The notes under the pieces: model-generated
Database searches by the model: none
Seen by the model: the letters and a program-made list of their open reading frames with translations, nothing else
Told to the model about the DNA's origin: nothing
In this document: one piece after another, positions 40,445 through 60,200 of the stretch
Layout: every line of letters starts with the position of its first letter
Position numbering within the stretch: the first letter of the stretch is position 1
Translations under genes and position numbers: made by a program
From: a phage
Reading direction: 5' to 3' (one strand)
Assembly: GCA_037574385.1 (NCBI GenBank)
Contig: GCA_037574385.1_4529.1
DNA length: 64,000 nucleotides

Positions 40445-40446
40445 TA

Positions 40447-43008: not shown

Positions 43009-43015
43009 AATTACC

Positions 43016-43412: not shown

Positions 43413-44498
<1,086 letters not shown>

Positions 44499-44499
<1 letters not shown>

Positions 44500-44798
44500 T
44501 ATTTTATTCCTAAGAAAGCTTCAAGAATACGAATGTTATGTTCGCGCCGGTCTTTATTAATTTCAGCAACGTTTTTATTAATTGACGTACTTCTAACGTT
44601 TGAAGAAATAAATTTAATCATATGACTTTTGAGTTGTTGCAAATCCAACCCTTTTTCTTTAGCAGCTTTACGAAGAGCTTTACCTGCTTCGTCTAGGGCC
44701 TTTGCTGCATCTTTATCATAATTGACAAGTGACATTCCACGGCAGATATCAATATACTCATCTGACCGTTTGATATAATTCTCTAGTAATGTTTTCAT
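44499..44798 (-). CDS. hypothetical protein (99 aa)
   Basis: ORF with early-type promoter upstream. Confidence 0.6.
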
Positions 44799-44826
44799 TT
44801 AGATTTCCTCAATTATCCATAGGAGC

Positions 44827-44856
44827 ATTATACTCTGCTCCCGAGAGTTTGTAAAC
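44827..44856 (-). promoter_or_regulatory. early-type promoter GTTTAC-N18-TATAAT
   Basis: Minus strand GTTTACaaactctcgggagcagagTATAAT. Confidence 0.55.
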
Positions 44857-45080
44857 TATTTTACTAAAGATTCAATATACTCATGAAGAGCTTTAGTCGC
44901 TACTGCCCACTTGTTCTGATATTCATTTTTCAGATTAGCACGAGACTGAACTAACAAGCGGTCGTTAGTCGGAGGCAAAGATTCTAATCGTTGAATCTGA
45001 CGGCCATAAATCATAGCCGCCATTTCAGAGTCATAGATAAGTCCTTTAAGGTATTCATGCTGTTCTTTAGTCATTGACAT
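44856..45080 (-). CDS. hypothetical protein (74 aa)
   Basis: ORF downstream of the spanin pair. Confidence 0.55.
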   Translation of the reverse strand: MSMTKEQHEYLKGLIYDSEMAAMIYGRQIQRLESLPPTNDRLLVQSRANLKNEYQNKWAVATKALHEYIESLVK

Positions 45081-45361
45081 TTTTCCTCTTTTAAACCACT
45101 ACGATAATAACATAACATAGTCTTCTGGTCATGTACATATCTTTTTACGTCGTTTAACCAGATACGAAATTCTTGAGAGTCTTCAAATGGCATTCCAACC
45201 CATGGATTACCATCAATAACCTTTACCTGCCATTTCTGGTTATATTCAACAATAGATTCAGGCCATTGCGGATGTAAAGTTTCTTTAGGGCTTAAGGGCA
45301 CATCTTGGGCACATCCAGCCAAAATGCCAATAGATAATACAACTGCGGTTAATTTAATCAT
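45071..45361 (-). CDS. outer-membrane spanin lipoprotein (T4 pseT.2-like)
   Basis: 96 aa; signal peptide with lipobox LAGC; follows the i-spanin gene. Confidence 0.8.
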   Translation of the reverse strand: MIKLTAVVLSIGILAGCAQDVPLSPKETLHPQWPESIVEYNQKWQVKVIDGNPWVGMPFEDSQEFRIWLNDVKRYVHDQKTMLCYYRSGLKEEKCQ

Positions 45362-45714
45362 TCTGAGAGCTTCCTGAGGTCTTCTGCAAAGGAATCGAAG
45401 GACCTGTTGATTTGTTTTTCAACCAATCCTGGTTTACTTGCCACCACGTTCTTCTTCTTCGAATCCTTACGGAGCTTTTCATTTTCAGCCTTAAGTTGGT
45501 CAACTAAAACACGGTTCTTATAAGTCATTTCTTCGATTGACTGATATTGAACTTTGAAGTCGTCTAATACTTTAGCATTGTTTTTAGCAGTCTCTTTAAC
45601 AGAAGCCAATTCAGTATTCAACGAATCAACTTTGTTGTTTAAGACAACTATTGTTACAGTAGAAACTAGAGCAAAAGCTGCTACTATAGCATAAATCGGA
45701 TTTACTTTAAGCAT
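45358..45714 (-). CDS. inner-membrane spanin (T4 pseT.3-like)
   Basis: 118 aa; N-terminal transmembrane helix then coiled-coil. Confidence 0.8.
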   Translation of the reverse strand: MLKVNPIYAIVAAFALVSTVTIVVLNNKVDSLNTELASVKETAKNNAKVLDDFKVQYQSIEEMTYKNRVLVDQLKAENEKLRKDSKKKNVVASKPGLVEKQINRSFDSFAEDLRKLSE

Positions 45715-46202
45715 GTTTTAATAATCTCAATGATTTCATCTCGGGATAATCCATTGATAAGAACGGTTTTCAAACCATCACACTGGATTTTGTACGATTC
45801 AAACAATACACACAACTCTTCTGCTGTATGATACGGGCTTGAAATTCCGAGGCGGTTGAATTTGTCGGTAAGAGGGTCGCAAATAATGTAGAATTTTATA
45901 CCTGCGATATGTACGTTTGGTTGACTAATATTAATGAACACATTAGCGTCATATTTAGTCAAATTGTTTTGAAGAAATTCTACCATGGCATTAACTGCTT
46001 CCGGCATCGCTTCGCGTTTCTCTTCGGCGTATCGAGTGGAATACTCTTTTTGTTTTACTTTCTTTTTAAGATTTTTGGCCAGTGTAACACGGAGGTCAGT
46101 AAGATAACCAACTGGACGTCCTTTCTTAAAGACTCGGATTCCGTCAGTTGTGTCTCCAAAAGCGGTTACGACCATATCGTTAGTAATCAATTGCATATTC
46201 AT
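45702..46202 (-). CDS. alc: Alc-like protein (host transcription inhibitor) by position
   Basis: 166 aa from internal ATG with GAGGA RBS; located between spanins and rnlA as T4 alc; sequence match not independently verified. Confidence 0.6.
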   Translation of the reverse strand: MNMQLITNDMVVTAFGDTTDGIRVFKKGRPVGYLTDLRVTLAKNLKKKVKQKEYSTRYAEEKREAMPEAVNAMVEFLQNNLTKYDANVFINISQPNVHIAGIKFYIICDPLTDKFNRLGISSPYHTAEELCVLFESYKIQCDGLKTVLINGLSRDEIIEIIKTCLK

Positions 46203-46232
46203 AATTTTCTCCTCGTGTTGTTGATAAAAGCC

Positions 46233-46262
46233 ATAGTAACACCTTCCTTGGTGTTTGTAAAC
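46233..46262 (-). promoter_or_regulatory. early-type promoter GTTTAC-N18-TACTAT
   Basis: Minus strand GTTTACaaacaccaaggaaggtgtTACTAT just downstream of rnlA stop. Confidence 0.5.
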
Positions 46263-46264
46263 CA

Positions 46265-47398
<1,134 letters not shown>

Positions 47399-47415
47399 TC
47401 AGTTAGTTTTTTTAA

Positions 47416-47445
47416 ATTGTACCACAATCCTTGTGGTATGTAAAC
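47416..47445 (-). promoter_or_regulatory. early-type promoter GTTTAC-N18-TACAAT for rnlA
   Basis: Minus strand GTTTACataccacaaggattgtggTACAAT; overlaps denA stop codon. Confidence 0.5.
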
Positions 47446-47855
47446 TACTTTTTCTTATGTTGGATATTCCAAGGCGGGTTGAACTTTTTGATAAAAAGTG
47501 GTTCTTCAAGGTCCATTGTTGCGATGGTCATTGAACCAAGTTCATTGGTGACTGAAAGGTCAAAACATTGGCGGGCCCAGAATTCAACCTTTTTGCCTTG
47601 CATTAAGGCATCCAAAATCATAAGTGATTTTCTTGAATCTGAAGTCTGGTCTTTTCGATTTATGGCTGTTCGATAATAGTTAATGCGTTTCTTTAAATTC
47701 TTGGTTTTACCAATATACACAAGTTCGTCATCTATAGCAATAGCGTATATGACATTTTTCTTATTAGGGGCATCAATGGTTTTAATTGTTGCATCTTCTA
47801 ATAGCTCCAATTCTATATATTTAATAAAGGAATATTCGGCGGCAATATCTTTCAT
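47445..47855 (-). CDS. denA: endonuclease II (GIY-YIG)
   Basis: 136 aa; VIYAIAIDDELVYIGKTKNLKKRINYYR GIY-YIG core and C-terminal FNPPWNIQHKKK match T4 EndoII; position between rnlA and nrdB. Confidence 0.95.
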   Translation of the reverse strand: MKDIAAEYSFIKYIELELLEDATIKTIDAPNKKNVIYAIAIDDELVYIGKTKNLKKRINYYRTAINRKDQTSDSRKSLMILDALMQGKKVEFWARQCFDLSVTNELGSMTIATMDLEEPLFIKKFNPPWNIQHKKK

Positions 47856-47863
47856 AATAAAGT

Positions 47864-47877
47864 GGGACCGAAGTCCC
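47864..47877 (-). terminator. stem-loop GGGAC-UUCG-GUCCC between nrdB and denA
   Basis: GC hairpin with UUCG loop directly after nrdB stop; followed by ACUUUAUUAUG containing the denA start. Confidence 0.55.
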
Positions 47878-47881
47878 GTCC

Positions 47882-49057
47882 TTAGAAATATTTTTTGTAT
47901 GAATTGATTACATTTTGGTCTACATCATTATCAATTTGTGCAACAAGATAAGAACTGATTTCAACTTCCTGAGGAGCTGCTTGAACTAAATCAGAGTTCA
48001 GATATTCACGAATCCAAGGATACGGATGTTTGGTCGGAGCATCAGTAATTGGACACGGCAAACCACACTGTTTCATACGAGACACAGTCAAGTAATCAAC
48101 AAAAGCACACATACTCTGTGTATTGATACCTGGACATGTACCGTCTTTAAAGAGGTGCGCAGCCCATTCCTTCTCTTGACTATTTACTTCCATAAAAATG
48201 TCAACTGCTTCTTGTTCACATTCTTTAGCAATTTGAACCCACTCATCGCCGTCAGTACCAGATTGAAGTTGACGGATAATGTACTGAGTACCCTTAAGGT
48301 GGAGTTGTTCGTCACGAGCAATGAACTTCATAATCTTTGCATTGCCTTCCATAATTTCCATATTTTTATGGAAGTTGAAAGTACATGCAAATGATACGTA
48401 AAAACGAATAGCTTCTAAGGCGTTGATAACGTGCAAACAGAGATAAAGAGATTTCATTAGCTCACGCTTGGCGTTAAACATTATTTCTTCGTACATCTCA
48501 ATATCATTCTGCTGGCATGAGCCTAGTGAATACTCATAATTTTCCTTAGCATTTTCCCAATGGCGAGTCTTGACTAGAACATCATCATAATATTTACCTA
48601 TTGATTCAGCTCGTTTCATGATTGCTTCGTCTAATACAATTTCATCAAATACCTTAGATGGATCGGTATAAAGATTTCGCATAATATGAGTATATGAACG
48701 AGAGTGAATAGTTTCACTGAATGTCCATGTTGCAACCCATGTATCTAATGAAGGGTCAGAAATAAGTGCCATAAGTACCGCAGATGGGGCCCTGCCTTGT
48801 ATAGAATCTAATAATGATTGATACTTAAGATTGTTTGTAAAGATGTCCTGTTGGAACTGAGGAAGCTTATTGAACTGCGCAGAGTCCAACATCAAGTTTA
48901 CCTCTTCTGGGCGCCAGAAAAACGACAATTGCTTTTCAATAAGTTCTTCGAAAACTTTATGACGCTGAATATCATACCGTGCGAGGCCAAGACCAGAACC
49001 AAAGAACATCGGTTCATTCAAAACATCGACTTGTTGCGTGTTAAAAACTGTACTCAT
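47882..49057 (-). CDS. nrdB: ribonucleotide reductase small subunit, intron-less
   Basis: 391 aa uninterrupted ORF with di-iron carboxylate motifs. Confidence 0.96.
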   Translation of the reverse strand: MSTVFNTQQVDVLNEPMFFGSGLGLARYDIQRHKVFEELIEKQLSFFWRPEEVNLMLDSAQFNKLPQFQQDIFTNNLKYQSLLDSIQGRAPSAVLMALISDPSLDTWVATWTFSETIHSRSYTHIMRNLYTDPSKVFDEIVLDEAIMKRAESIGKYYDDVLVKTRHWENAKENYEYSLGSCQQNDIEMYEEIMFNAKRELMKSLYLCLHVINALEAIRFYVSFACTFNFHKNMEIMEGNAKIMKFIARDEQLHLKGTQYIIRQLQSGTDGDEWVQIAKECEQEAVDIFMEVNSQEKEWAAHLFKDGTCPGINTQSMCAFVDYLTVSRMKQCGLPCPITDAPTKHPYPWIREYLNSDLVQAAPQEVEISSYLVAQIDNDVDQNVINSYKKYF

Positions 49058-49112
49058 TATATTTTCTCACTTAGTTATTAACTCATCCATGAGTAAATTA
49101 TAATCAAAAGTC

Positions 49113-51368
49113 TTAAAGCTTACAAGCAGAGCAATCTTCGGCTTTAGGTGTTTCTAATTCATAGTCATCTGTACCTGACCCATCACGAGTGTTATGATAG
49201 TAGAGATTTTTTCCGCCAAAGTACCAGAAGTAAAGCAGATCGTCAAGCATTACTGACATTGGCACTTTACCTTTCTCAAATACTGTCGGGTCATAGTAAG
49301 TATTAGCAGAAGCAGATTGGCACACCCATTTCAACATGATAGCAACTTGGGTCAAATAAGGTTTATTACCTTTCTTAGCAAGTTTCCACGCGTAGTCGTA
49401 AAGACTCATGTTATGTTCGATATTAGGAACAACCTGACGGAAGTTGCCTTCTTTAGATTCTTTAATACTTACAGGTCCACGAGGTGGTTCTATACCGTTT
49501 GTGCTATTTGAGACTTGACTGCTTGATTCGCATGGCATGAGAGCACTAAGTGTACTGTTACGAATTCCATGTTCTTTGAGTTCAGCTCGAAGTTCTTCCC
49601 AGTCACAGACGTAGTTCGGGGCTGCGATTTGGTCAATCTTTTTATTGTACCAGTCGATAGGTAATTCGCCTCTAGACCATTTAGTGTCTGAATAATACTC
49701 ACAAGGTCCTTTTTCTTTGGCGAGTTTGATTGAAGCTTTGATAAGGCCATATTGCAATCTCTCAAACAATTCATGAGTCAAATCGTTAGCGTCTTCATAT
49801 GAAGCAAAGTTAGAAGCTAACCATGCAGCATAGTTCGTCACACCAACACCGAGATTTCGACGCTTTTTAGCTTTTAAAGCTTCTGGAACCGGATAATCTT
49901 GATAGTCTAACAGGTTATCAAGTGCACGTACTTGTACTTCAGCAAGTTCATTAATTTTATCTTGGTCTTGCCAATCAAATTTATCTAATACAAAAGCAGA
50001 TAACGTGCATAAACCAATTTCAGCATCAGGACCATTCACATCATTAGTTGGAATAGCGATTTCACAGCATAAGTTACTCTGACGAATTGGAGCTTTTTCA
50101 CGAATAAACGGAGTGTAGTTATTCGTGTTATCAACAAACTGTGGATAAATTCGAGCAGTACCAGAACGTTCAGTCATGAACAATTCAAAGAGTTCTAGTG
50201 CTTTGATTCTTTTCTTTCTGATTGTTGGGTCTTTTTCAGCTTTCTCATAAAGCTCACGGAATTTATCTTGATCTTCAAAGAATGAGTAATATAGTTCGCC
50301 TGACATTTCGTGAGGGCTAAATAAAGTAATATAATCATTTTTACCAAGGCGTTCCATCATAAGGTCATTAATCTGAATTCCGTAGTCCATATGTCGAATA
50401 CGGTTTTCATCCACACCTTTGTTATTTTTCAGAACCAACAGGTTCTCTACTTCTAAGTGCCACATCGGATAATACGCCGTAGCAGCACCACCACGAATAC
50501 CACCTTGAGAACAAGATTTTACTGCAGTTTGGAAATGTTTCCAGAACGGAATAACACCCGTATGTCGAACTTCACCCATACCGATCTTAGAACCTTCTGC
50601 ACGAAGCATACCAACGTTGATACCGATACCAGCTCGTTTAGAAATATATTCAATAATTGATGCTGAAGTTTTGTTAATAGATTTTAATGAATCACCGGCT
50701 TCAATAACTACGCAACTAGAGAACTGGCGAGTTGGAGTACGAGCACCTGCCATAATTGGGGTTGGCAATGAAACTTGATGAGTAGAAACAGCATCATAAA
50801 AACGAATAATATGTTTCAAACGGTCATGAGTTTCGTCTTGATGTAAGGCCATACCAATAGCCATGATAGCAAACTGTGGAGTTTCATAAATCTTCCCAGT
50901 TGTTTTATCTTTAACTAGGTATTTTTCTTTAAGCTGCATAGCACCAGCATAAGTCAGATCAAAATCTCGCTCATGTCTAATCCGAGAATCAAGATAAATG
51001 ATTTCTTCTGCAGAATATCTAGACAACAACTCAGGATCGTATTTGCCTTCATTAACACAATACGAGATATGGTCGATAAAAGCAGGAGGTTCAAACTGTC
51101 CGTATACATCTTTACGAAGCGCAAACATTAATCCTTTAGCGGCAACATATTGATAATCAGGTTCTTCAACAGAAATCGAGTTAGCTGCAACTTTAATACA
51201 AATCTTCTGGATATCTTTAGTGCTCATCCCATCAACCAGATGAGTCTTAATTTCTTCATATAATTCGTATGGGTCTATTTGTGTTCCTTCACATTGCCAA
51301 GTTAATACTTGAATAATTTTCTGTGCATCAAAATTTTGGGATACCCCACTGCTCTTAGTTACTTGCAT
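49113..51368 (-). CDS. nrdA: ribonucleotide reductase large subunit
   Basis: 751 aa; class Ia RNR catalytic and C-terminal Cys motifs. Confidence 0.96.
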   Translation of the reverse strand: MQVTKSSGVSQNFDAQKIIQVLTWQCEGTQIDPYELYEEIKTHLVDGMSTKDIQKICIKVAANSISVEEPDYQYVAAKGLMFALRKDVYGQFEPPAFIDHISYCVNEGKYDPELLSRYSAEEIIYLDSRIRHERDFDLTYAGAMQLKEKYLVKDKTTGKIYETPQFAIMAIGMALHQDETHDRLKHIIRFYDAVSTHQVSLPTPIMAGARTPTRQFSSCVVIEAGDSLKSINKTSASIIEYISKRAGIGINVGMLRAEGSKIGMGEVRHTGVIPFWKHFQTAVKSCSQGGIRGGAATAYYPMWHLEVENLLVLKNNKGVDENRIRHMDYGIQINDLMMERLGKNDYITLFSPHEMSGELYYSFFEDQDKFRELYEKAEKDPTIRKKRIKALELFELFMTERSGTARIYPQFVDNTNNYTPFIREKAPIRQSNLCCEIAIPTNDVNGPDAEIGLCTLSAFVLDKFDWQDQDKINELAEVQVRALDNLLDYQDYPVPEALKAKKRRNLGVGVTNYAAWLASNFASYEDANDLTHELFERLQYGLIKASIKLAKEKGPCEYYSDTKWSRGELPIDWYNKKIDQIAAPNYVCDWEELRAELKEHGIRNSTLSALMPCESSSQVSNSTNGIEPPRGPVSIKESKEGNFRQVVPNIEHNMSLYDYAWKLAKKGNKPYLTQVAIMLKWVCQSASANTYYDPTVFEKGKVPMSVMLDDLLYFWYFGGKNLYYHNTRDGSGTDDYELETPKAEDCSACKL

Positions 51369-51455
51369 ATATTCCTCAGTATAGGTTGATAGACATTACT
51401 CCAAACGGGATAGTATTTATCCCGTTAATTTATTATACACTTTTAAACTGAAGCG

Positions 51456-51710
51456 TTAATTATTCTTAGCAATAATTTCTTTGTATTCTTTAGGTGTCAA
51501 GACCGTGATATTGAAATAAACCAACGGTTCTTTTTCCATACCGTAACCACCACAAAATTCACGATATTCATAAATTCGTTCATGTGAATAACAAACGAAT
51601 CGTTCACCTTTAACTGTGATTTCACTATTTGGTGAAGGGATATCCAGTTCACTTGGATTTTTCATTTCAAAAATTGTGGTGCCATATGAATTAATAAAAC
51701 GTAAAATCAT
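51456..51710 (-). CDS. hypothetical protein (84 aa)
   Basis: ORF between nrdA and td. Confidence 0.6.
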   Translation of the reverse strand: MILRFINSYGTTIFEMKNPSELDIPSPNSEITVKGERFVCYSHERIYEYREFCGGYGMEKEPLVYFNITVLTPKEYKEIIAKNN

Positions 51711-51711
51711 T

Positions 51712-52572
51712 TTATACCGCCATTTTAGCTTTGATAGCTGGATGTGATTCGTAATTTTTAAGAATAAAGTCTTTAGGACGAAGTTTTAATACGTATTCGA
51801 TTTGTTCTTCGGTTGATAGATGTCTAAATTTGTATGGTAATCCGTTAATAACTAATTCACACAACTCTTTAGGTTCACGACGTAAAACTTCTTTGCATTG
51901 CTCTACGTGGTTGCTGTAGATATGCGTATTGCCGCCTGAGAACACTAAATCACCCGGGATAAGGTTACACATCTTCGCTACAATATGCGTCAAGGCAGCG
52001 TACGAGGCAATGTTGAACGGCAAGCCCAAGAAAACATCAACACTTCTCTGGTACCATTGTAAATCAAGATAACCATTACGCACATTGAACTGATAGAACA
52101 TATGGCAAGGAGGAAGAGCCATTTGATTTATTTCGGCCGGATTCCAGGCAGAAACAATTTGACGACGATCAGTTGGTAATTTTTTAATACGGTCGATTGT
52201 TTCAACTAATTGGTCCACACCACCGAAATCACGCCATTGTTTACCATATATAGGACCAAGTTCACCACTATGATAACCAAGGTCTTTTGCCTGATTTTCG
52301 TAATTATCGTCCCAAATAGTTTTACCTTCAATTAGACTACCATGAGTACGAAGACGTAATTCATTAACATTAGTAGAACCTGACATGAACCACAGTAACT
52401 CGGCAATACAAGCTTTCCATGCTAATTTCTTAGTTGTTACTGCAGGGAATCCTTTAGTCAGATCCCAACGTAATTTAGTTCCGAACAGGGCAATTGTTCC
52501 TGTGCCTGTACGGTCGTCTGTTTCGTAGCCATTTTCTAGGATATCATTAATCAGGTATTGGTATTGTTTCAT
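51712..52572 (-). CDS. td: thymidylate synthase, intron-less
   Basis: 286 aa continuous ORF; ThyA motifs including catalytic PPCH. Confidence 0.97.
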   Translation of the reverse strand: MKQYQYLINDILENGYETDDRTGTGTIALFGTKLRWDLTKGFPAVTTKKLAWKACIAELLWFMSGSTNVNELRLRTHGSLIEGKTIWDDNYENQAKDLGYHSGELGPIYGKQWRDFGGVDQLVETIDRIKKLPTDRRQIVSAWNPAEINQMALPPCHMFYQFNVRNGYLDLQWYQRSVDVFLGLPFNIASYAALTHIVAKMCNLIPGDLVFSGGNTHIYSNHVEQCKEVLRREPKELCELVINGLPYKFRHLSTEEQIEYVLKLRPKDFILKNYESHPAIKAKMAV

Positions 52573-53156
52573 TTATATACGCTCTCAGTAATTTCGGTGA
52601 GTTCATCGATTCTGTAGTAATGAGATTCTACCATAGAACGTTGAAGCATAATATCTTGGATGAAATCTTTATCAAGTTGAACGTCTGAATTAACACGACA
52701 TTTCTTAATGATTTTAGTCATAACAATTTCATCAGCATAAGGCAATGCTTGTTTAAGTAGAGCAGGACCGCCGATAACCGAGACATCGACATGTTCAGTA
52801 GAAAGTTTAAACGGTACGTCGGTTGAAGGGCTTAACAAGTTAATTTCACTACCCATTACCAAGGTAATAAATTCTGCTTGGGTGATATAGAACCGTGCAA
52901 GTTCATCAGTTTTAGTCCTAGGCAGTTTTCTGGCCATATCAGTGACAACCACATGAGTACGATCTGGTAGTAGACGAGGTAATGATGCAAAAGTCTTAGC
53001 ACCCATAACCAATACAGTGTTTTTAGTGCGAGCAACAAAGTTACTCATATCTTGTTTGATATGCTTCCATGGAAGTCCATCACCTAATCCAAAAGCATAT
53101 TCCAGATTATCATCAACTGTTTTAGTCGGAGCACACGCGAATACTAATTTAAGCAT
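52569..53156 (-). CDS. frd: dihydrofolate reductase
   Basis: 195 aa; stop overlaps td start. Confidence 0.9.
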   Translation of the reverse strand: MLKLVFACAPTKTVDDNLEYAFGLGDGLPWKHIKQDMSNFVARTKNTVLVMGAKTFASLPRLLPDRTHVVVTDMARKLPRTKTDELARFYITQAEFITLVMGSEINLLSPSTDVPFKLSTEHVDVSVIGGPALLKQALPYADEIVMTKIIKKCRVNSDVQLDKDFIQDIMLQRSMVESHYYRIDELTEITESVYK

Positions 53157-53158
53157 TT

Positions 53159-53407
53159 TTATTTCCTCAGATTTTTCTTAACAACTTTCCAATCAGCTTT
53201 AAACAATTCAACGTCAGAGTGGTGAATCCAGAATCCTGCACTTTCGCCGTCTTCGTAGAGTGGACATCCGTCACATTCTTCGTTCCAACCCATTTCACGT
53301 AAAGCTTCTTCAGCTTGTTCAAGGAGTTCAGCATCTTTACCAACGACGTTGAAGTACCATTTACCTTTAACTTCAGAATCTTTGATGCTCTGACGTTGTA
53401 ATCTCAT
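53159..53407 (-). CDS. hypothetical protein (82 aa)
   Basis: Start at internal ATG (MRLQRQS...) with GGAGA RBS; track ORF has a 21-codon upstream extension. Confidence 0.6.
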   Translation of the reverse strand: MRLQRQSIKDSEVKGKWYFNVVGKDAELLEQAEEALREMGWNEECDGCPLYEDGESAGFWIHHSDVELFKADWKVVKKNLRK

Positions 53408-53469
53408 TTTATTCTCCTTCACTTTTGATTTGATAGGGCTACTATAACATAACCCTATCTGATTATACA

Positions 53470-53862
53470 CTACTTTTTAAAAGTTTTTTGCAAAAGTTTG
53501 ATGATTTCGTCGACGTTGGTTTCATCTACGATACAATGGATTTTTGTTACACCTAAAGTTATACCTTCGTTAGTAGGTTGAGGCTTTACTAAATCTACCT
53601 CAGTAAAGTATTTGAACTCGTCAGGATAAATCTCAAAATAAGTTTCAATTTCACCACCGGCAGAACATACAGTACCATCTTCCATAGTTACACTTACTAC
53701 GTTTGGCGTATCATTATCATAATCAGGTTCCATTCCGTTTACAACAAAACTAGGCCCATGGAGTTCAATCAATTTTAACATCTTAGCGTTATTGTGTGGT
53801 GCTTCTTGAACAAAGTCGTCTTTAAATAAAGGGTTAATGATATAAGATTTTCCGATTTCCAT
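53470..53862 (-). CDS. hypothetical protein (130 aa)
   Basis: ORF with early promoter cassette upstream. Confidence 0.6.
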   Translation of the reverse strand: MEIGKSYIINPLFKDDFVQEAPHNNAKMLKLIELHGPSFVVNGMEPDYDNDTPNVVSVTMEDGTVCSAGGEIETYFEIYPDEFKYFTEVDLVKPQPTNEGITLGVTKIHCIVDETNVDEIIKLLQKTFKK

Positions 53863-53951
53863 TTTGATTTCCTCATGTTGTTGATAAGTCTATACTAACA
53901 CATCCAGGGAAGAAGTAAACAACTTTTTCGGTAATTTACAGATACTCAAAA

Positions 53952-53969
53952 GGGAGACCGAAGTCTCCC
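53952..53969 (-). terminator. intrinsic terminator GGGAGAC-UUCG-GUCUCCC + CUUUUGAG after gene 32
   Basis: Hairpin 6 nt downstream of gp32 stop on the minus strand. Confidence 0.8.
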
Positions 53970-53975
53970 GATTTA

Positions 53976-54878
53976 TTATAGACCGGCTAACAGGTCATCG
54001 AGGTCACCATCATCAGAGGATGAGGTAGAGCTCATGAAGTCATCTTCAGTTTTTGCAGAACTAAAGGCTTCCATGTCTTTATCAAAATCGTCAAGGTCAG
54101 AAGCAACTTTATCTGCAACAGAAGCTGCTGCGGCTGCTGCACCACCAAGAGCGGCAGTACCAAGAACCTTAGCGAAAGATTCATTTAATTTTTCAAAAGA
54201 TTTGAACTGGTCTTTAGCCGTCAAAGTAGTAAGGTCTACCATCTGGTCATACAGTTCTTTCTGGAATGCTTCGTCATTAATACGAGGAATTTCAGATTGA
54301 CCCAAGAATTTAGATTCGTCATAGTTGCTAAAACCGGAAACCTGCTTAGCTTTCAGAACGAAGTTAGCACCTTCAAACGGACAAGTAACATCAACTGGAG
54401 TTTCACCCATTTCGGTATCAACAGCAATCATTGCATTGATTTTGTCCCAAATCTTTTTACCGAAACGATATTTAAATACTTTACCTTCGTTATCTGGAGC
54501 TTGAGGGTCTTTAACAACCAGAATATTAGCCCAATAGGAAGTTTTACGTTTCAGTTGAGAATATTCAGTTTTGTTGGTATTGTACAGGTCATTTTTACTA
54601 ATGTACTGACATACAGGACAAGAGTCGTAATCACCATGTGTAGAAGAGCAATTTTCAATATACCATTTACCATTTTTCTTGAAACCGTGGTTAACAAGAA
54701 TTGCAAATGGTAGTGCATCATCAGTTTTTGCTGGCAAGAAACGAATTACCGCTTGACCATTACCTGATGCATCTAGCTTCAGCTTCCATTCGCCTTTATC
54801 TTCTGAAGAGAAACCTTTGTTACCGTTCAGTTTAGCCATTTGAGCAGCGAGGTCAGCAGTAGATTTACGTTTAAACAT
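53976..54878 (-). CDS. 32: single-stranded DNA-binding protein gp32
   Basis: 300 aa; zinc-binding Cys/His cluster and acidic C-terminus as T4 gp32. Confidence 0.97.
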
Positions 54879-54965
54879 TATATTTACCTTTATTTAGATT
54901 ATTTAATTTATTTACAGTTGGTTGCTACGACACTTATACCTCGTAGCTGGTATGATTTATTTATA
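54879..54965 (-). promoter_or_regulatory. gene 32 leader: late promoter TATAAATA, hairpin/pseudoknot GCUACGA...UCGUAGC and AU-rich operator
   Basis: Minus strand reads TATAAATAaatcataccaGCTACGAggtataagtgTCGTAGCaaccaactgTAAATAAATTAAATAATCTAAATAAAGG..ATG, the architecture of the T4 gene 32 translational operator. Confidence 0.75.
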
Positions 54966-54994
54966 AAGTAATTTTAACACACAAGAAATAAAGC

Positions 54995-55648
54995 TTAATA
55001 CTTACATGATTTGATTGTTTCTATGAACAATTTCTTAGCAGCATTTCCATCGATTTGAAGTATTTTTCGATATGCCTTTAATTTGGTAGAATAATTTTGC
55101 CAGACTAAATTGTCAGTAAGTTCGTCATGCTTATCTATAATATTCAAGAATGAATCCAACAACAAGAAGGTTTCAAACGAAATTATATTGCTTTGTAGCA
55201 ATTTAAATATGTAGCTCGACTGAACTTTATTATTATAATCAAATATCTCTTGAAGCGCACTAACTTCCACTTTCTTACTGAAATAGTAGATGTTACGTAC
55301 ATCTTCAGCAAACGTCTCCTTGGCCTGTTTGAGACGTCCAATATATTCCCTATAGAAAACTAATGCATCAGCGTCTGATATCTCACCAATCCATGCATCT
55401 TGGTTAGCAACTAAGTTACTGATGAATATCAAAGTGAGTTCCTTTAACTTATATTTCTCTGCTAGTTTCTCAAAGAAATATTTATCTCGGCGTTTTTGAT
55501 ACGCATTATCCGAAACACGCATGCACCAGTTATATTTGATTACGTCATACCGACCATTAAAATGTTGTTTGCACATCAAGTATAGTTTGTATACCGATTT
55601 TCCGTTAATATAACGTTCTCCATCAGGAGGCATGCGTATTTTAATCAT
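54995..55648 (-). CDS. 59: helicase loader gp59
   Basis: 217 aa; MIKIRMPPDGERYINGKSVYKLYLM... as T4 gp59. Confidence 0.96.
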   Translation of the reverse strand: MIKIRMPPDGERYINGKSVYKLYLMCKQHFNGRYDVIKYNWCMRVSDNAYQKRRDKYFFEKLAEKYKLKELTLIFISNLVANQDAWIGEISDADALVFYREYIGRLKQAKETFAEDVRNIYYFSKKVEVSALQEIFDYNNKVQSSYIFKLLQSNIISFETFLLLDSFLNIIDKHDELTDNLVWQNYSTKLKAYRKILQIDGNAAKKLFIETIKSCKY

Positions 55649-55983
55649 AATAAGAAATCTAACGTATTAGTTTTTTCACCACGAGCAACTGATGGGCGAA
55701 GCATGTTTTCGTCAATTGCTTCACTTGTAATTTTTTCAACAATTCCTGTAGGAATAAATTTAGCAAATTGTGTTTCTGGAATAGAATTTTCTTCCAAGAA
55801 AGCAGTTGTTGCTTCTAAATAAGACATACCAAATTGTTCAACCATGGATTCGATAATGAATCCGTTTTCTTGACGGTCAAGCAATTTAGCGATATCATCT
55901 TTATCGTGTTTTACTGCTAATTCTTGTTCAGATAAACCGGCCTCATCAACCGGTTTAATATCACTTAGTGAAAACTGTGTCAT
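55645..55983 (-). CDS. 33: late transcription co-activator gp33
   Basis: 112 aa; MTQFSLSDIKPVDEAGLSE... and C-terminal KTNTLDFLL as T4 gp33. Confidence 0.96.
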   Translation of the reverse strand: MTQFSLSDIKPVDEAGLSEQELAVKHDKDDIAKLLDRQENGFIIESMVEQFGMSYLEATTAFLEENSIPETQFAKFIPTGIVEKITSEAIDENMLRPSVARGEKTNTLDFLL

Positions 55984-56230
55984 AAAGCTCGACTACCTCT
56001 TCGTTTTCAGCTTCAAATTGGTCACGAGCATCTTTATGATAAAGAGCTAACAAACGATTAAACATTTTTCCATCGACGCCAAGCTCTTCTTTAGCACGAG
56101 TACGAATGTCTTTAATCAGTTCATTATAACCAGAAATTTTAAGTTTGTTATCGGAAGCTTCCTTGACTAGTTTAGCCAGTTCTTCACCATGCACATCTTG
56201 ATTAAATTCAACTGCTTCTTTCTTAGCCAT
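55961..56230 (-). CDS. dsbA: dsDNA-binding protein DsbA
   Basis: 89 aa from internal ATG (MAKKEAVEF...) with GAGGT RBS; matches T4 DsbA. Confidence 0.93.
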   Translation of the reverse strand: MAKKEAVEFNQDVHGEELAKLVKEASDNKLKISGYNELIKDIRTRAKEELGVDGKMFNRLLALYHKDARDQFEAENEEVVELYDTVFTK

Positions 56231-56237
56231 GTTTACC

Positions 56238-57155
56238 TCAGAATTCATTAATTACACTTGTTAATTTAGAAAGTCCAGATTTTACAAAGTACGAATAAAT
56301 CTTGCCTTTAGGTTGTGGTTTATATGAGTTATAATACTCTATAATGGTTGAAGCAATATTATCAGGGATATAATCAAAATCAATTAGAACCAAATTTTCT
56401 TGGTACCGTTTATATTCTTCTGCACTTAATAATACTTCAGCTTGAGAACGGTCATTAGCAATTGCTTCAATAATCGTTGTTTTCATGCTTGGAGTTCGTT
56501 CGCCTTCAACTCGAGTAAACCAGAAATCACCACGAACTCGAACAGACGCAACACCATCTTTACGGTCGCCTTTAAGAATTTTAGTCATGCAATCAATTTC
56601 GGCAGAACCATTCTTAATTTTAACCCATTTTTTCTGCGGTGGCGACCACTGTTTAACGTTAGGGTATTTGTGTAATTGTGTAAAGTCACCATCTGATGCA
56701 ACAATACACACCTTATGACCGGCTAATGACAAATATTTAGTTAATACACCGATATGGTCATCTGCTTCGTATTTGTCAATATCCATTACAACGTATGGCA
56801 TATATTTCTTAATCTCATCAACGACTTGATGGAGTGCAGTAAAATATCCTTCCCAATCCCACTTTGAAGCTTCACGATCGGTTTTACGATTTTTCTTATA
56901 ATAGTAAGCAAAGTCGCGTCGCCAATACCCAGAAGTAGCGTTATCCATGCACAATACAAATTTTGTATAACCTTGCTTACGGAACATCACTACGTTTTTA
57001 CGAATTGAATTCAAGATTACATGGCGAACCATCGGAACAGTAATTTTATCACCGTCTTCAAAGTTGTTTAATGCAGCTGCTAATGCAATGTTACTAAAGT
57101 CTGCAAGTGCAATACCTTCTTTGTAATCTTCATCCAACATCATTTCTAAATCCAT
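56238..57155 (-). CDS. rnh: RNase H (5'-3' exonuclease, FEN-1 family)
   Basis: 305 aa; MDLEMMLDEDYKEGIALADFSNIAL... as T4 RNase H. Confidence 0.97.
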   Translation of the reverse strand: MDLEMMLDEDYKEGIALADFSNIALAAALNNFEDGDKITVPMVRHVILNSIRKNVVMFRKQGYTKFVLCMDNATSGYWRRDFAYYYKKNRKTDREASKWDWEGYFTALHQVVDEIKKYMPYVVMDIDKYEADDHIGVLTKYLSLAGHKVCIVASDGDFTQLHKYPNVKQWSPPQKKWVKIKNGSAEIDCMTKILKGDRKDGVASVRVRGDFWFTRVEGERTPSMKTTIIEAIANDRSQAEVLLSAEEYKRYQENLVLIDFDYIPDNIASTIIEYYNSYKPQPKGKIYSYFVKSGLSKLTSVINEF

Positions 57156-57188
57156 ATGAACCTCTTGTTCAGTTAGTCAACTTGGACT

Positions 57189-57218
57189 ATAGTAACATAC
57201 TAGTTCGAAAGCGTAAAT
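57189..57218 (-). promoter_or_regulatory. early-type promoter ATTTAC-N18-TACTAT for rnh
   Basis: Minus strand ATTTACgctttcgaactagtatgtTACTATAGTC in the divergent rnh/34 intergenic region. Confidence 0.45.
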
Positions 57219-57233
57219 AGTCTTTTACTCATT

Positions 57234-57241
57234 TATAAATA
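57234..57241 (+). promoter_or_regulatory. late promoter TATAAATA for gene 34
   Basis: Exact TATAAATA about 35 nt upstream of gp34 ATG. Confidence 0.7.
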
Positions 57242-57275
57242 GTAAAATAGAACACATAATGATAAGAGGACTACC

Positions 57276-60200
57276 ATGGTTGACATCAAACGTAAGTTCA
57301 GGGCCGAAGATGGTCTTGACGCAGGCGGTGATAAGATAGTTAACGTTGCGCTTGCTGACCGCACAGTTGGCACCGATGGCGTGAACGTTGACTTTTTGGT
57401 GCAAGAAAACACCGTACAGAATTATGACGAGACGCGCGCGTATACAAAAGATTTTATTGTTCTTTATGATAATCGTTTTTATCAAGCTTTAAACGATATT
57501 CCAGCTCCGGCAGGCCCTTTCTCTTTGGCTAAATGGAAGGCAACTCGTACAGATGCAGAATGGATTACAGTTCAAGGCGGAGATTTCCAATTATCAGTAG
57601 GTAACTCTATCGCGGTTGATACTTCAGCTGGCACTGATATTAATTTCACTTTGCCTCAAAATCCTTTAGATGGCGATACAGTTATTTTGTCTGATATTGG
57701 TGGTAGAGTAGGCTATGTAAAAGTTCAAATTACTGCAGAGGCTCAAAGTATTGTAAACTTTAGAGGACAACAGGTTCGTTCAGTTTTAATGACGCACCCA
57801 AAATCTAAAATGGTCTTCATTTTTAGCAACCGCCTATGGCAAATGTATGTTTCTGATTACGAACGTAATGCAGTCACAGTAACTCCTGCTAAGCCATATC
57901 AGGCGCAACCTAATGATTTTATCATTCGACGTTTTACATCAGCCGCTCCTATTAATATTACATTGCCTCGTAATGCTAATAATGGCGATATTATTAATTT
58001 AGTTGATTTAGACAAATTAAACCCATTATATCACACAATTGTCAAAACTTACGATGAAACAACTTCTATACGAGAAGCTGGTGTTCATGTAGCAGAAGGA
58101 CGTAATACTGCGGAAGCATTCTTTGTTTATGATTCTGCTAATAGCTTATGGCGTGTTTGGGAAGGTGACCAGAAATCTCGTTTACGTATAGTTCGTAATG
58201 ATACTGATTTACACCCTAATGAAGAAGTTCTTGTTTTTGGAACTAATAATGATACAATCTCGACGGTAAATCTTACTTTGCCTACAGATATTTTGTCTGG
58301 CGATACTGTTAAAATATCGTTGAATTATATGCGTAAAGGGCAAACTGTAAAAATTAAAGCTGCTGAAGGCGATACAATTGCTAGCAGTATTTCTTTATTA
58401 CAGTTCCCAAAACGTTCGGAGTATCCACCTGATGCACAATGGGTTTCTGTTAGTGAGCTGGAATTTAATGGTGATACTTCGTATGTACCTGTACTTGAGT
58501 TAGCTTATATAGAAGATTATTCATCTGAAACAAAATATTGGGTAGTTCAACAAAACACCGTAACCGTCGAACGAGTCGATGCATCGAGCAATACAACTAG
58601 AGCTCGTTTAGGTGTTATTGCGCTTGCTTCTCAAGCGCAAGCAAATGTTGATTTAGAAAATGCTCCTGGTAAAGAACTGGCTATTACTCCGGAAACATTA
58701 GCAAATCGTACAGCAACTGAAACTCGTCGTGGTATTGCTCGTATTGCAACAACTGCACAAGTTAACCAGAATACCGATTTTGCATTCCAAGACGACTTGA
58801 TTATTTCTCCTAAGAAATTGAACGAACGTACAGCAACTGAAACCCGTAGAGGTGTTGCTGAAGTTGCAACTCAGGCTGAAACTAATGCTGGCATAGATGA
58901 TACCACTATTATTACTCCTAAGAAATTGGATGCCCGTCAAGGTTCTGAAGTTTTATCTGGTATTGTAAAATACACATCTACGACTGGTACTACAGCTGCT
59001 ACTATTCGTGGTAATGCTGGGACTAACGTTTATAACAAAGCTGTAGATAATTTAACTATTTCTCCAAAGGCTCTTGACCAGTATAAAGCTACCCCTACTC
59101 AACAGGGCGCAGTAATTCTTGCTATTGAAAGTGAAGTTATCGCTGGCGAATCACAAGCTGGTTGGGCTAATGCTGTAGTGACCCCTGAAACTCTGCATAA
59201 GAAAACTTCTACTGATGGGCGTATTGGTTTAATTGAAATTGCTACGCAAGCAGAAACTAACACTGGAATTGATTATACTAGAGCAGTAACGCCTAAGACG
59301 TTAAATGATAGGAAAGCTACGGAAGGATTATCCGGCATAGCCGAAATTGCTACGCAAGTTGAATTTGATACTGGAACTGACGATACTCGTATCTCGTCTC
59401 CACTGAAAATTAAAACTCATTTTGATTCTTCTGACCGTACCAGTGTTAATTCTGATTCCGGACTTATTGAAGAAGGAACCTTGTGGAACCATTATACTCT
59501 TGATATTTCTAAAGCAAATGAAACACAACGTGGTACACTTCGCGTAGCAACCCAAGCAGAATCTAATGCAGGAACTTTAGATGATGTTCTTATTACTCCT
59601 AAAAAGCTTTTAGGGACTAAGTCCACTGAAACGTCTGAAGGCGTAATTAAGGTTGCTACTCAGGCTGAAACTGTAACAGGAACTTCTGCTAATACTGCTG
59701 TATCTCCTAAGAATTTAAAATGGATTGTCCAGAATGAACCAACATGGGCTGCTACTACTGCAATAAGAGGTTTTGTTAAAACTTCATCAGGTTCAATTAC
59801 ATTCGTTGGTAATGATACAGTTGGTTCAACACAACCTTTAGAATCATATGAAAAAAATAGCTATGCGGTGTCACCATATGAATTAAACCGTGTACTTGCT
59901 AACTATTTGCCATTGAAAGCTAAAGCCGTAGATAGTAATCTGTTAGATGGTCTAGATTCTCTTCAGTTCATCCGTAGAGACATCGACCAGACGGTTAATG
60001 GTTCTTTAAGTCTTACTAAGCAGACCAACCTGAGTGCTCCTTTAGTATCTACAAGCACTGCTTCTTTTGGGTCCGAAGCATCTGTTACTCGTAGATTAAC
60101 TCTTAACGACTCTAGCGGTTCTGAAATAGTTTTCACTAAAGGAACCCAATCTCTTAGTAATAAAGAGAATTTCGTTGTTAGAGCATGGGGTAATAGCGCT

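Follow-up and report, generated by a model that had tools for sequence, protein, structure and literature searches.

The early promoters and ribosome-binding regions of bacteriophage T4 have long been described (Liebig and Ruger, 1989, J Mol Biol 208:517; reviewed by Hinton, 2010). They are 'uber' promoters, in which UP, −35, TGn and −10 elements are joined by additional consensus regions; use of T4-type early promoters by the sigma-70 holoenzyme, stimulation by Alt and inactivation by RegB are established. The RegB/S1 target is an intergenic, single-stranded GGAG with an A-rich 7-mer behind it (consensus GGAGAAUAAAA), and GGAGAATAAAA is the published optimal site; GGAA, GGAT and GAGGT forms are, according to the literature, either poorly cut by RegB or outside the range of its tests. 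For RB69, early promoters were predicted by Nolan, Petrov, Bertrand, Krisch and Karam (2006, Virol J 3:30, Additional file 3).

Early promoters of T4-like phages have also been described as parts of PeSL (promoter-early stem-loop) cassettes (Arbiol et al., 2010; Comeau et al., 2014), reported for RB49/phi1, PST/T4 and nt-1/KVP40; RB69 goes unmentioned in the 2010 paper. In PeSLs the stem-loop is commonly located between −35 and −10, or overlaps −10, and one that was tested attenuated a reporter as strongly as rrnB T1. Crossovers between PeSLs lie between −10 and the ATG.

Here we analyse a 64,000-nucleotide stretch of phage DNA (NCBI GenBank assembly GCA_037574385.1, contig GCA_037574385.1_4529.1; the 'window'), which belongs to Mosigvirus and is 96–99% identical to RB69, phiC120 and ESh27. 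A first-pass annotation had pointed to a family of near-identical promoter and leader blocks in this DNA, the focal one at 53863-53930. As judged from the sequence, what is repeated here is the ordinary set of early promoters, with their ribosome-binding leaders, that an RB69-like (Mosigvirus) phage of the T4 type carries.

Occurrence and similarity of the repeated blocks

The block was present at all 11 coordinates given in the first-pass annotation, in each case on the minus strand and with an ATG directly downstream. Enrichment was clear: GTTTAC-N17/18-TANNAT matched 10 times, always on the minus strand, as compared with 0.55 ± 0.77 in dinucleotide shuffles (10 was reached in 0/100), while the stricter form GTTTAC..TA[C/K]TATAGAC occurred four times with 0 expected. 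A generic TTGACA/TATAAT sigma-70 scan of 38000-57900 gave no enrichment (77 matches versus 64.5 ± 8 in shuffles), so that the information lies in the family-specific extended motif only. A profile HMM trained on the 11 sites revealed one further member in the window (19485-19536, E=1.4e-4) and nothing else below E=0.4; the promoter of this twelfth member lies at 19492-19521, again on the minus strand. Applied to the complete RB69 genome, the same HMM gave 47 matches at E<0.01, none of them on the plus strand. In a leave-one-out analysis, 9/11 sites were recovered at E≤0.005, with no unrelated match ranked higher. The site at 44799 was missed and that at 57156 was marginal (E=2), indicating that these two share only core promoter elements with the family.

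To call the copies near-identical, as had been done at first, overstates their similarity, because most pairs are only loosely alike. Just three pairs (39005/53863, 38562/39005 and 16614/53863) align over ~100–140 nt, at ~75–80% identity. The mean pairwise local-alignment score was 20 among the sites, as compared with 11 among random segments; the exact 15-mer TATAGACTTATCAAC was found only twice, and the −10 hexamer takes seven different forms.

Architecture of the cassettes

The claim that conservation extends beyond the −35 and −10 hexamers proved correct, and the conserved positions fall on known elements: an A-tract UP element, the TGn of an extended −10, a CCTATC start region, an A/C-rich leader and a Shine-Dalgarno (SD) sequence. 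Outside the hexamers, conservation was found in the A-tract (−43 to −39), at G −36 and G −20, in TATG (−17 to −14) and in CCTATC (−3 to +3; 0.75–1.2 bits per position), and, within the leader, in an A-rich stretch and GGA. A frequency at −43 to −39 was 0.55–0.79 among the 47 RB69 family members, and the window set has the same consensus. The −35 element GTTTAC(A/T) is exact in 10/12 sites, the exceptions being 53408 (GTGTAT) and 57156 (ATTTAC). The spacer is 17 nt long in nine sites and 16 nt in three; the −10 fits TAnnnT in all 12, and TGn is present at −15 to −13 in 10. GGAG forms the SD in five sites, as the exact 11-mer GGAGAATAAAA in three (38562, 39005 and 53408) and with an A-rich tail at 16614 and 46203, while the remaining seven SDs are GGAA, GGAT or GAGGT. 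PeSL features are also present, namely an early promoter with an AT-rich upstream region, and an SD and ATG at the 3′ end.

Each cassette reads, in order, as an A-tract UP element and −35 GTTTAC(A/T); a 16–17 nt spacer ending in TGn, and −10 TAYWAT; the start region, conserved as (A)G(A/T)CCTATCAA, and a short unstructured A/C-rich leader; and a strong GAGGA/GGAG SD, 6–9 nt ahead of the ATG. By analogy with T4, host RNA polymerase would fire the cassettes immediately after infection, and cleavage of the GGAG(AAUAAAA) leaders by the RegB nuclease of the phage, together with ribosomal protein S1, would come later.

T-even genomes also carry many middle and late promoters and homing-endonuclease-associated repeats. 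Apart from this general consideration, nothing specific suggests that the blocks are promoters of the middle (MotA-dependent) or late (gp55) class, or a family of mobile repeats with no tie to transcription, and we regard these identities as extremely improbable. Positions −36 to −31 hold GTTTAC, not a MotA box (TGCTT) centred at −30, and at −10 the sequence TAYWAT, with TGn, stands in place of the late motif TATAAATA; on this basis MotA-box and late-promoter identities are rejected. Furthermore, every copy lies on the early-gene strand at a fixed distance from its ATG, there are neither terminal repeats nor target duplications, and positions are orthologous across RB69 and T4. The blocks are very probably genus-typical sigma-70 early promoters, each fused to the translation initiation region of the gene that it drives.

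Cassettes and their counterparts in RB69 and T4

All 12 sites are orthologous to early promoters predicted in RB69 (Nolan et al., 2006), in support of the original reading of the blocks as early promoters with leaders, and all are co-oriented with early genes, among them alt.-3, 30.7, 30.8, cd.2, alc, rnlA, frd.1, frd.2 and rnh. The proposed comparison with T4 was likewise favourable, in that nine of the 12 slots have a promoter-like T4 counterpart. One of these is named in the T4 GenBank record, which holds no promoter features except for one note; the other counterparts are promoter-like sequences in the matching slots.

All cassettes described below are on the minus strand. The one at 16614-16673 (RB69 Pe:109605) lies where late genes 23 and 24 leave a slot between them; it precedes an 89-aa ORF (16344-16613) and consists of GTTTACA, a 17-nt spacer, TGA, TACTAT, AGACTTATCAAC and the GGAG SD. 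The twelfth member (19404-19521; RB69 Pe:112451) lies upstream of 24.2 and inside the 24.3 coding region; it has GTTTACA-17-TACTAT without TGn and a long leader with a CCGAGACAGCTCGG hairpin. The cassette of alt.-3 follows at 32234-32292 (RB69 Pe:125323; T4 counterpart 123093), the G of its GTTTAC being overlapped by the alt TAG stop codon. The 30.7 cassette (38562-38631; RB69 Pe:131670; T4 counterpart 129918) has the RegB/S1 consensus GGAGAATAAAA as its SD block, as does its paralogue upstream of 30.8 (39005-39080; RB69 Pe:132117). About 35 nt upstream of the 30.8 promoter, at 39111-39130 on the same strand, lies an intrinsic terminator, AGGGAGACTTCGGTCTCCCT followed by a T-run.

The cassette at 42676-42735 (RB69 Pe:134561), upstream of a cd.2-like 78-aa ORF, is the one whose counterpart the T4 record names as early promoter Pe133295. 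At 44799-44856 (RB69 Pe:136687) a divergent member, GTTTACA-17-TATAAT without TGn, precedes a 99-aa RB69ORF231c-like ORF. The cassettes of alc (46203-46262; RB69 Pe:138093; T4 counterpart 136336) and rnlA (47390-47445; RB69 Pe:139277) come next, the denA TAG stop overlapping the −35 G of the latter. The frd.1 cassette (53408-53470; RB69 Pe:145300) has GTGTATA-17-TATAGT, its −35 G overlapped by the frd.2 TAG stop, and SD GGAGAATAAAA. The focal cassette (53863-53930; RB69 Pe:146013), GTTTACT-16-TAGTAT with the leader of frd.2, has the intrinsic terminator of gene 32, GGGAGACTTCGGTCTCCC followed by TTTT (53952-53969, minus strand), 32 nt upstream of its −35. The last cassette, that of rnh (57156-57218; ATTTACG-17-TACTAT; RB69 Pe:149309), is a divergent member without a hairpin, in a divergent region facing gene 34.

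Evidence for recombination at the repeated leaders

The suggestion that cassettes are shuffled corresponds to the published PeSL model, in which recombination at the repeats would insert, lose or swap genes between cassettes and exchange cassette segments, and the focal site supports it directly. Among Mosigviruses, three states of the slot between gene 32 and frd.2 are seen, with a repeat of the leader at the bounds of each: it is empty in the window and most Mosigviruses, holds ORF245c/frd.3 in RB69, phiC120 and JN02, and holds a paralogue of frd.2 in ATK47. With ORF245c missing from the window, the focal promoter drives frd.2 directly, unlike in RB69. Sequence comparison identifies the focal leader, ATCAACAACATGAGGAAA, as the recombination joint of this polymorphic slot.

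Likeness among the copies very probably has two causes: almost all positions are contacted by RNA polymerase, the ribosome or RegB/S1, and the repeated leaders and promoters, 20–45 nt long, serve as substrates for recombination. Functional constraint through these contacts could in principle have produced the likeness convergently by itself, with no part played by recombination between copies. The conserved columns do coincide with known contact elements, most cassette pairs are weakly alike outside them, and most differences from RB69 lie away from cassettes. Nevertheless, we think constraint alone quite unlikely. A run of 47 nt (16607-16653) is 100% identical to a paralogous, non-orthologous RB69 cassette (72487-72533), and the identity continues into the first codons. 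The 18-nt core of the terminator at 39111-39130 is identical to that of the terminator after gene 32, so that two cassettes have one and the same terminator hairpin on their upstream side. In addition to the three leader-bounded states, the spacer of the focal promoter is not the same throughout, window and ATK47 differing here from RB69 and phiC120 within flanks that are otherwise ~95% identical. Finally, PeSL-to-PeSL crossovers and mini-circles have been shown experimentally in RB49/phi1.

Constraint and recombination together thus remain our reading of the copies. The cassettes are, however, one recombination substrate among many, since 3/4 differences from RB69 (two indels and one replaced segment) lie elsewhere: no cassette was found at the borders of the differences at 23.86 kb, 39.43-39.58 kb and 41.33-42.42 kb, the last of which is bounded by TAATGA(G/A)AGCTA, a 13-nt microhomology unrelated to cassettes.

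Hairpins in and near the promoters

Hairpins with z≤−2.4 are embedded in five of the 12 window promoters, all on the minus strand. Four enclose the −10: that of 30.7 (TGGTACAGG...CCTGTACCA, 38591-38623; −17.9 kcal/mol, z=−4.6), that of the 42676 site (GTAGAGT...ACTCTAC, 42695-42720; −11.9 kcal/mol, z=−3.3), that of the 44799 site (GGGAGCA...TGCTCCT, 44821-44842; −12.2 kcal/mol, z=−2.4) and that of frd.1 (GATAGGGTTAT...GTAGCCCTATC, 53432-53459; −16.3 kcal/mol, z=−6.8). The fifth, in the rnlA promoter, is a spacer hairpin (TACCACAA-GGA-TTGTGGTA, 47420-47438; −8.3 kcal/mol, z=−2.5). Together with the two upstream terminators, a stem-loop adjoins or overlaps the promoter in 7/12 sites, and the other five have a weak one or none; folding of the focal promoter revealed no embedded hairpin. 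An Rfam search of the window gave no match anywhere.

The broader idea of a hairpin somewhere within 130 nt of every cassette was rejected: 6/12 sites reach −10 kcal/mol, as compared with 30% of random minus-strand segments, and hairpins at any position within this distance were not in excess over random (binomial p=0.12; Mann-Whitney p=0.21). Significance is thus limited to the promoter-embedded hairpins. When the two arms of a promoter's own hairpin were compared with chimeric arms, stem length differed in the window (p=0.0006), in RB69 outside the window span (p=0.0002) and in T4 (p=0.005), and energy differed likewise (p=0.0004 and 0.0002). We relied on these register-free tests because column-wise covariation was unusable. 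For 11 frd.1-promoter orthologs aligned by sequence, RNAalifold yielded no more than −0.93 kcal/mol and two compensatory pairs, a weak consensus that arises because the hairpin register shifts between lineages; eight diverged orthologs of this promoter all fold (−14.6 to −19.1 kcal/mol), with differing arm sequences.

About 40% of promoters have a promoter-specific hairpin around −10, mostly where the upstream stop codon abuts −35. In RB69, fold energy averages −9.9 kcal/mol where the upstream stop is ≤25 nt from −35, as compared with −3.3 kcal/mol for the others. Where there is room on the upstream side, a canonical terminator with a UUCG loop tends to be found there instead: of 12 RB69 promoters examined for upstream structure, a set that includes all 11 whose upstream stop is not within 25 nt, at least seven have, upstream, a T-run preceded by a GC-rich tetraloop hairpin. 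A U-tract is missing from the embedded hairpins, which are therefore not canonical intrinsic terminators. On read-through RNA that comes from upstream promoters, embedded and upstream hairpins alike would serve as attenuators, or as 3′-end or processing structures that insulate the cassettes.

Inverted repeats that enclose −10 occur in the window, RB69 and T4, and at the frd.1 promoter they persist, with arms of differing sequence, in at least eight diverged phages. We propose, very tentatively, that they form a selected, functional and as yet uncharacterised layer of T-even early promoters, in RNA insulation or coupling or in early-promoter shut-off. Within read-through RNA, neighbouring cistrons would be insulated or coupled by them; alternatively, they may take part in the shut-off. 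A variant of this arrangement is found in several RB69 early promoters that lie beyond the window span, such as the ones upstream of regB, motB.2 and denV, where an anti-SD run just after −35 pairs with the downstream SD over 10–14 bp, as is possible only in read-through RNA. In this variant the ribosome-binding site would be hidden except when the upstream ORF is translated or the promoter of the gene itself is used. Long-range pairing between spacer and SD is significant across the RB69 genome, and in the 12 window cassettes no site reaches 7 bp (p=0.36).

The same repeats might instead act as DNA, through cruciforms or single-strand hairpins that affect promoter opening or shut-off, or as hot spots for recombination or endonuclease VII. 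Several are near-perfect palindromes centred on TGn and −10, with loops of 3–6 nt; in RB49 a PeSL crossover was mapped in the stem-loop's loop, and the mechanism of early-promoter shut-off is described in the literature as not completely understood. Yet G-U pairs make up 34/237 predicted pairs and, in the hairpin subset, sense RNA is more stable than antisense (p=0.014), an asymmetry that is not expected from DNA structure. That embedded hairpins track the upstream stop and give way to ordinary terminators where there is space fits a role in read-through RNA, and the sites at 16614 and 57156, which lack an annotated co-directional upstream gene, have no hairpin. A DNA-level role is thus doubtful.

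Discussion

Both the cassette family and the PeSL idea are already known; what has been found again here is the consensus that T-even phages have for early promoters and ribosome binding. It is a real finding but an ordinary one, since the orthologous sites were predicted in RB69 as early as 2006. We infer promoter activity, the position of +1 and early timing from T4 and RB69, and co-regulation of the cassettes would follow from T4-type early promoter biology. The main worth of the analysis lies in annotation, in that 12 early transcription units are fixed in the window. Beyond this, the slot between gene 32 and frd.2 provides a clean natural case of a gene slot whose contents are exchanged at a repeated leader. 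The embedded-hairpin layer is the sole part that could add to knowledge: if functional, it would show how phage genomes that are very tightly packed accommodate transcript insulation or translational coupling within the spacers of promoters.

RB69 is the closest described system. Its predicted early promoters lie on the same strand and precede the same genes as the window sites, and the two consensus sequences are alike in GTTTAC, in a GT-rich run 5′ of −12 and in a C-rich −3 to −1. The window nevertheless represents a separate Mosigvirus isolate, with 96–98% identity to RB69, and individual cassettes differ; the focal promoter has a spacer other than that of RB69, and the −10 of the 30.8 promoter is an intact TACTAT in the window as compared with TTCTAT in RB69.

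T4 early promoters and the window sites share the 'uber' arrangement of UP element, −35 GTTTAC, TGn, −10 and extra consensus around the start, as well as GGAG SDs of the kind that are RegB targets in T4. The preferred −10 forms differ from those of T4, TACTAT and TATAGT being common in the window, and so do some of the genes behind the cassettes: segD in T4 is replaced by the 89-aa ORF in the window, and T4 frd.3 by nothing.

The window cassettes also resemble the PeSL composite, which joins an AT-rich region, a sigma-70-like early promoter, a stem-loop, an SD and an ATG. In both, the stem-loop, which in the window is found at 7/12 sites, may lie upstream of, inside or over the promoter, and genes are inserted, deleted or replaced between close relatives. 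The PST/T4 stem-loops, however, were described just upstream of the promoter, whereas in the window and in the T4 sequence that we scanned many enclose −10. In the T4 genes for lysozyme (e), soc, 49 and I-TevI, a promoter lies inside a hairpin and only long read-through transcripts mask the ribosome-binding site. This arrangement resembles that of the RB69 anti-SD promoters, with the difference that the internal promoter is late or middle in T4 and early in RB69.

Predicted early promoter cassettes precede minus-strand genes

The region round the cassette at 53863 (−), which drives frd.2, shows 99% identity to Shigella phage ESh27 and 98% to Escherichia phage phiC120 (Mosigvirus). The counterpart of the window in RB69 is 92.9–156 kb, at 93.8–97.6% identity over most of the window. 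By the RB69 annotation, the plus strand carries late genes 11 to 54, followed by the early/middle genes alt to rnh on the minus strand and then by tail-fibre genes 34–37.

The first-pass annotation held that a set of minus-strand genes shares an extended upstream block, and this was borne out at all 11 listed sites, each on the minus strand with an ATG at its end. The motif GTTTAC-N17/18-TANNAT matched 10 times, always on the minus strand, as compared with 0.55 ± 0.77 matches in shuffled sequences, none of 100 of which reached 10; stricter forms with TA[C/K]TATAGAC were found four times against none expected, while a generic TTGACA/TATAAT scan gave no enrichment. With the 11 sites as input, a profile HMM revealed a 12th member at 19485–19536 (E = 1.4e-4), which lies within 24.3 and 5′ of 24.2, and no further match below E = 0.4 in the window beyond these 12. 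Leave-one-out profiles regained 9 of the 11 sites, each at E ≤ 0.005 and ahead of any unrelated match; 44799 (E > 10) and 57156 (E = 2) were missed, and therefore have only core promoter elements in common with the rest. In the complete RB69 genome the window-derived HMM gave 47 matches at E < 0.01, and all 52 matches at E < 1 lay on the minus strand.

The description of the copies as near-identical was overstated. Pairwise local-alignment scores between cassettes had a mean of 20.2 (random segments: mean 11.4, 99th percentile 18); the 15-mer TATAGACTTATCAAC has just two exact copies, the −10 hexamer takes seven forms, and alignment extends over about 100–140 nt in three pairs only (39005/53863, 38562/39005 and 16614/53863).

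The cassettes precede, all on the minus strand, an 89-aa ORF between genes 23 and 24 (16614), 24.2 (19521), alt.-3 (32234), 30.7 (38562), 30.8 (39005), a cd.2-like ORF (42676), an ORF231c-like ORF (44799), alc (46203), rnlA (47390), frd.1 (53408), frd.2 (53863) and rnh (57156). A location inside the late cluster thus applies to 16614, in the gene 23/24 interval, whereas 32234 stands at the late/early border. The 89-aa ORF is intact (16344–16613, −); its slot is occupied in RB69 by two annotated fragments (ORF189c, ORF188c) and in T4 by segD, a homing endonuclease gene, making this another variable slot downstream of a conserved early promoter.

Starting from the T4 consensus, 58 early promoters were predicted in RB69 by fuzznuc/HMMer (Nolan et al., 2006). 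The 12 window sites correspond one-to-one to these coordinates in the homologous span (Pe:109605, 112451, 125323, 131670, 132117, 134561, 136687, 138093, 139277, 145300, 146013 and 149309). A window-derived HMM scan of T4 105–155 kb found promoter-like sites in nine of the same slots, one of which, between cd.3 and cd.2, is named early promoter Pe133295 in the T4 record. The cassettes are very likely units of early promoter and translation initiation. They represent, in a Mosigvirus, the T4-type consensus of early promoter and ribosome-binding site; the orthologous RB69 sites had already been predicted, and the recombination reading discussed below is the published promoter-early stem-loop (PeSL) hypothesis.

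Individual members differ between the phages. The −10 of the 30.8 promoter is TACTAT in the window (39047) and TTCTAT in RB69 (132103), where the −11 A is lost, and the cd.2 start is ATG in the window (42675) and AGG in RB69 (134547); these changes may be sequencing errors or may mark single cassettes that are decaying in RB69. Between frd.2 and frd.1, T4 (locus L008, about 41006–41143) has a small unannotated hydrophobic ORF (MFAPYIMAAVMLVCLYLLIKAC), the order being frd.1 early promoter, this ORF, then frd.1, which has a leader of its own, GGAGAATAAAA. The same arrangement occurs in two IMG/VR contigs (L013 and L020); the window and RB69 lack the ORF.

Conservation extends into the leader

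Information content across the 47 RB69 members, aligned on the −10, revealed a UP-like A-tract at −43 to −39, G at −36 followed by TTTAC, G at −20, TATG at −17 to −14 (an extended −10), TAnnAT at −10, CCTATC at −3 to +3 (0.75–1.2 bits per position), and an A-rich leader followed by GGA. The 12 window sites share this consensus, with TGn in 10, so that conservation past the −35 and −10 hexamers, as proposed, is upheld. These positions agree both with the description of T4 early promoters as ‘uber’ UP/−35/TGn/−10 promoters with additional regions of consensus, and with the GT-rich run upstream of −12 and the preference for C at −3 to −1 in RB69 (Nolan et al., 2006).

In T4 early mRNAs, the 11-mer GGAGAAUAAAA is needed for efficient RegB/S1 cleavage (Durand et al., 2006). 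An exact copy precedes the ATG at 38562, 39005 and 53408; at 16614 and 46203 a GGAG is followed by an A-rich tail. We attribute conservation of the 3′ part of the leader to this element, and infer RegB cleavage of these leaders in this phage.

Hairpins are embedded in the promoters

Many promoters contain an inverted repeat with one arm in the spacer and the other immediately beyond the −10, the arm sequence being promoter-specific. Own arms were compared with chimeras carrying another promoter's downstream arm, a control that keeps position-specific composition and consensus-level palindromy. The longest stem was 5.42 bp for own and 4.22 bp for chimeric arms in the window (p = 0.0006), 5.71 and 4.70 bp in the independent RB69 set outside the window span (p = 0.0002), and 5.67 and 4.58 bp at nine T4 sites (p = 0.005). 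Folding energies were −8.7 and −5.7 kcal/mol in the window (p = 0.0004) and −8.4 and −5.5 kcal/mol for all 47 RB69 members (p = 0.0002). Hairpins at any position within 130 nt showed no enrichment over random sequence.

Five of the 12 window promoters reached z ≤ −2.4: 38562 (−17.9 kcal/mol; upstream stop to −35 G, 4 nt), 53408 (−16.3; −1 nt), 44799 (−12.2; −1 nt), 42676 (−11.9; 0 nt) and 47390 (−8.3; −1 nt). No hairpin was found at 16614 or 57156, which have no annotated co-directional gene upstream. In RB69 the mean energy was −9.9 kcal/mol where the upstream stop lies within 25 nt of the −35, and −3.3 for the rest (Spearman p = 0.026). Among 12 RB69 promoters folded upstream (11 with a distant upstream stop and one with a 22-nt gap), at least seven have a GC-rich tetraloop hairpin and T-run there, as do window 39005 and 53863.

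A TAG stop overlaps the −35 G in four window cassettes (32234, 44799, 47390 and 53408), so that the whole UP-like A-tract is coding sequence. These codons, at 32292, 44856, 47445 and 53470 (−), end alt, a 74-aa ORF, denA and frd.2, respectively, at a −35 of GTTTAC or GTGTAT; such overlap is seen at about 10 RB69 promoters too.

All eight diverged orthologs of the frd.1 promoter, six of them from IMG/VR contigs and the others from T4 and RB69, fold at energies between −14.6 and −19.1 kcal/mol (z between −2.2 and −6.0), with varying arms (AGGGTA/TACCCT, AAGGCT/AGCCTT, ATAGGGC/GCCCTAT, TGGGGC/GGTCCCA). RNAalifold on the sequence alignment sees little of this because the hairpin register shifts between lineages. 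In the RB69 hairpin subset, sense RNA was the more stable in 16 cases and antisense in 7 (p = 0.014), and G-U pairs made up 34 of 237, which favours an RNA-level role. Since the upstream arm lies 5′ of +1, hairpin formation is confined to read-through transcripts, whose ends the hairpins would therefore attenuate, process or stabilize. They lack U-tracts. We put forward action on read-through RNA only tentatively, as somewhat short of an even chance.

Probable recombination at the gene 32–frd.2 slot

In RB69 and phiC120 the gene 32 terminator is followed by a promoter, ORF245c (frd.3 in another RB69 record) and frd.2, and ORF245c lies between direct copies of the leader sequence ATCAACAAATGAG(A)GGAAA. 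The window lacks ORF245c and has one hybrid leader; its promoter spacer, TCTTCCCTGGATGTGT, bears no relation to the TTTCCTTTAAACATGA of RB69 and phiC120, although the flanks are about 95% identical. A sample of 60 records, spread over 155 for Mosigvirus, showed an empty slot in most; RB69, phiC120 and JN02 carried 263 additional bp, and ATK47 carried 386. The ATK47 insert is an frd.2 paralogue bordered by a ∼45-nt repeat of the leader and first 11 codons; it is unannotated (L009 560–1120, −, between gene 32 and frd.2), and its opening 11 codons are those of frd.2 (MEIGKSYIINP). In T4 this slot holds frd.3, annotated at 72 kb in RB69. Window 16607–16653 matches a non-orthologous RB69 cassette (72487–72533) at 100% identity, from the −10 into the second codon.

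A terminator hairpin, GGGAGACTTCGGTCTCCC, is common to the upstream sides of the 39005 and 53863 cassettes. The intrinsic terminators at 39111–39130 (−), 5′ of the 30.8 promoter, and 53952–53969 (−), after gene 32, have the same hairpin, GGGAGAC-TTCG-GTCTCCC. RB69 promoter 20957 has an almost identical one upstream of it, and further early promoters of that phage follow other UUCG-loop terminators.

The PeSL model explains modular shuffling by composite cassettes of early promoter, stem-loop, Shine–Dalgarno (SD) and ATG, in which crossovers have been mapped to the interval from the −10 to the ATG. The slot states, leader repeats and common cassette segments are what this model describes, and recombination between copies probably contributes to cassette similarity. 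Shuffling, as first proposed, is supported at this slot, but three other differences between the window and RB69 lie away from cassettes, one bounded by an unrelated 13-nt microhomology; T4 recombines generally at very short homologies. This microhomology of the window, TAATGA(G/A)AGCTA, rather than a promoter cassette, stands at the borders of a 1.1-kb segment between cd.2 and cd (41329–42424) that RB69 lacks; the matching gene in phiC120 is annotated phospho-2-dehydro-3-deoxyheptonate aldolase. Between 30.9 and rIII, 153 bp (39431–39584) stand where RB69 has an unrelated 51 bp; no cassette was detected at the borders of this segment.

Comparison with PeSL cassettes

Outside the window span, a subclass of RB69 early promoters has a spacer that pairs with the downstream SD over 10–14 bp (p = 0.002–0.006 against chimeras); window promoters lack such pairing. 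An anti-SD run directly after the −35 (GTTTACT TCTCCTC...) occurs at RB69 7429, 20523, 58124, 61362 and 64920 (L005, L006), and its pairing partner is the downstream gene's SD plus an extension specific to each promoter, as in TTCTCCTCTAGTTG/CAACTAGAGGAGAA 5′ of regB; this pairing is possible in read-through RNA only.

What may be new is narrow: with proper controls, embedded hairpins of the PeSL type can be shown in the promoters of Mosigvirus and T4. The 2010 PeSL paper does not mention RB69. Arbiol et al. gave PeSL stem-loops a role on read-through transcript ends and placed those of RB49 and phi1 mostly between the −35 and −10 or over the −10. For T4 and PST, the PeSL papers place the stem-loops just upstream of the promoter, whereas our analysis finds hairpins embedded in the T4 promoters themselves.
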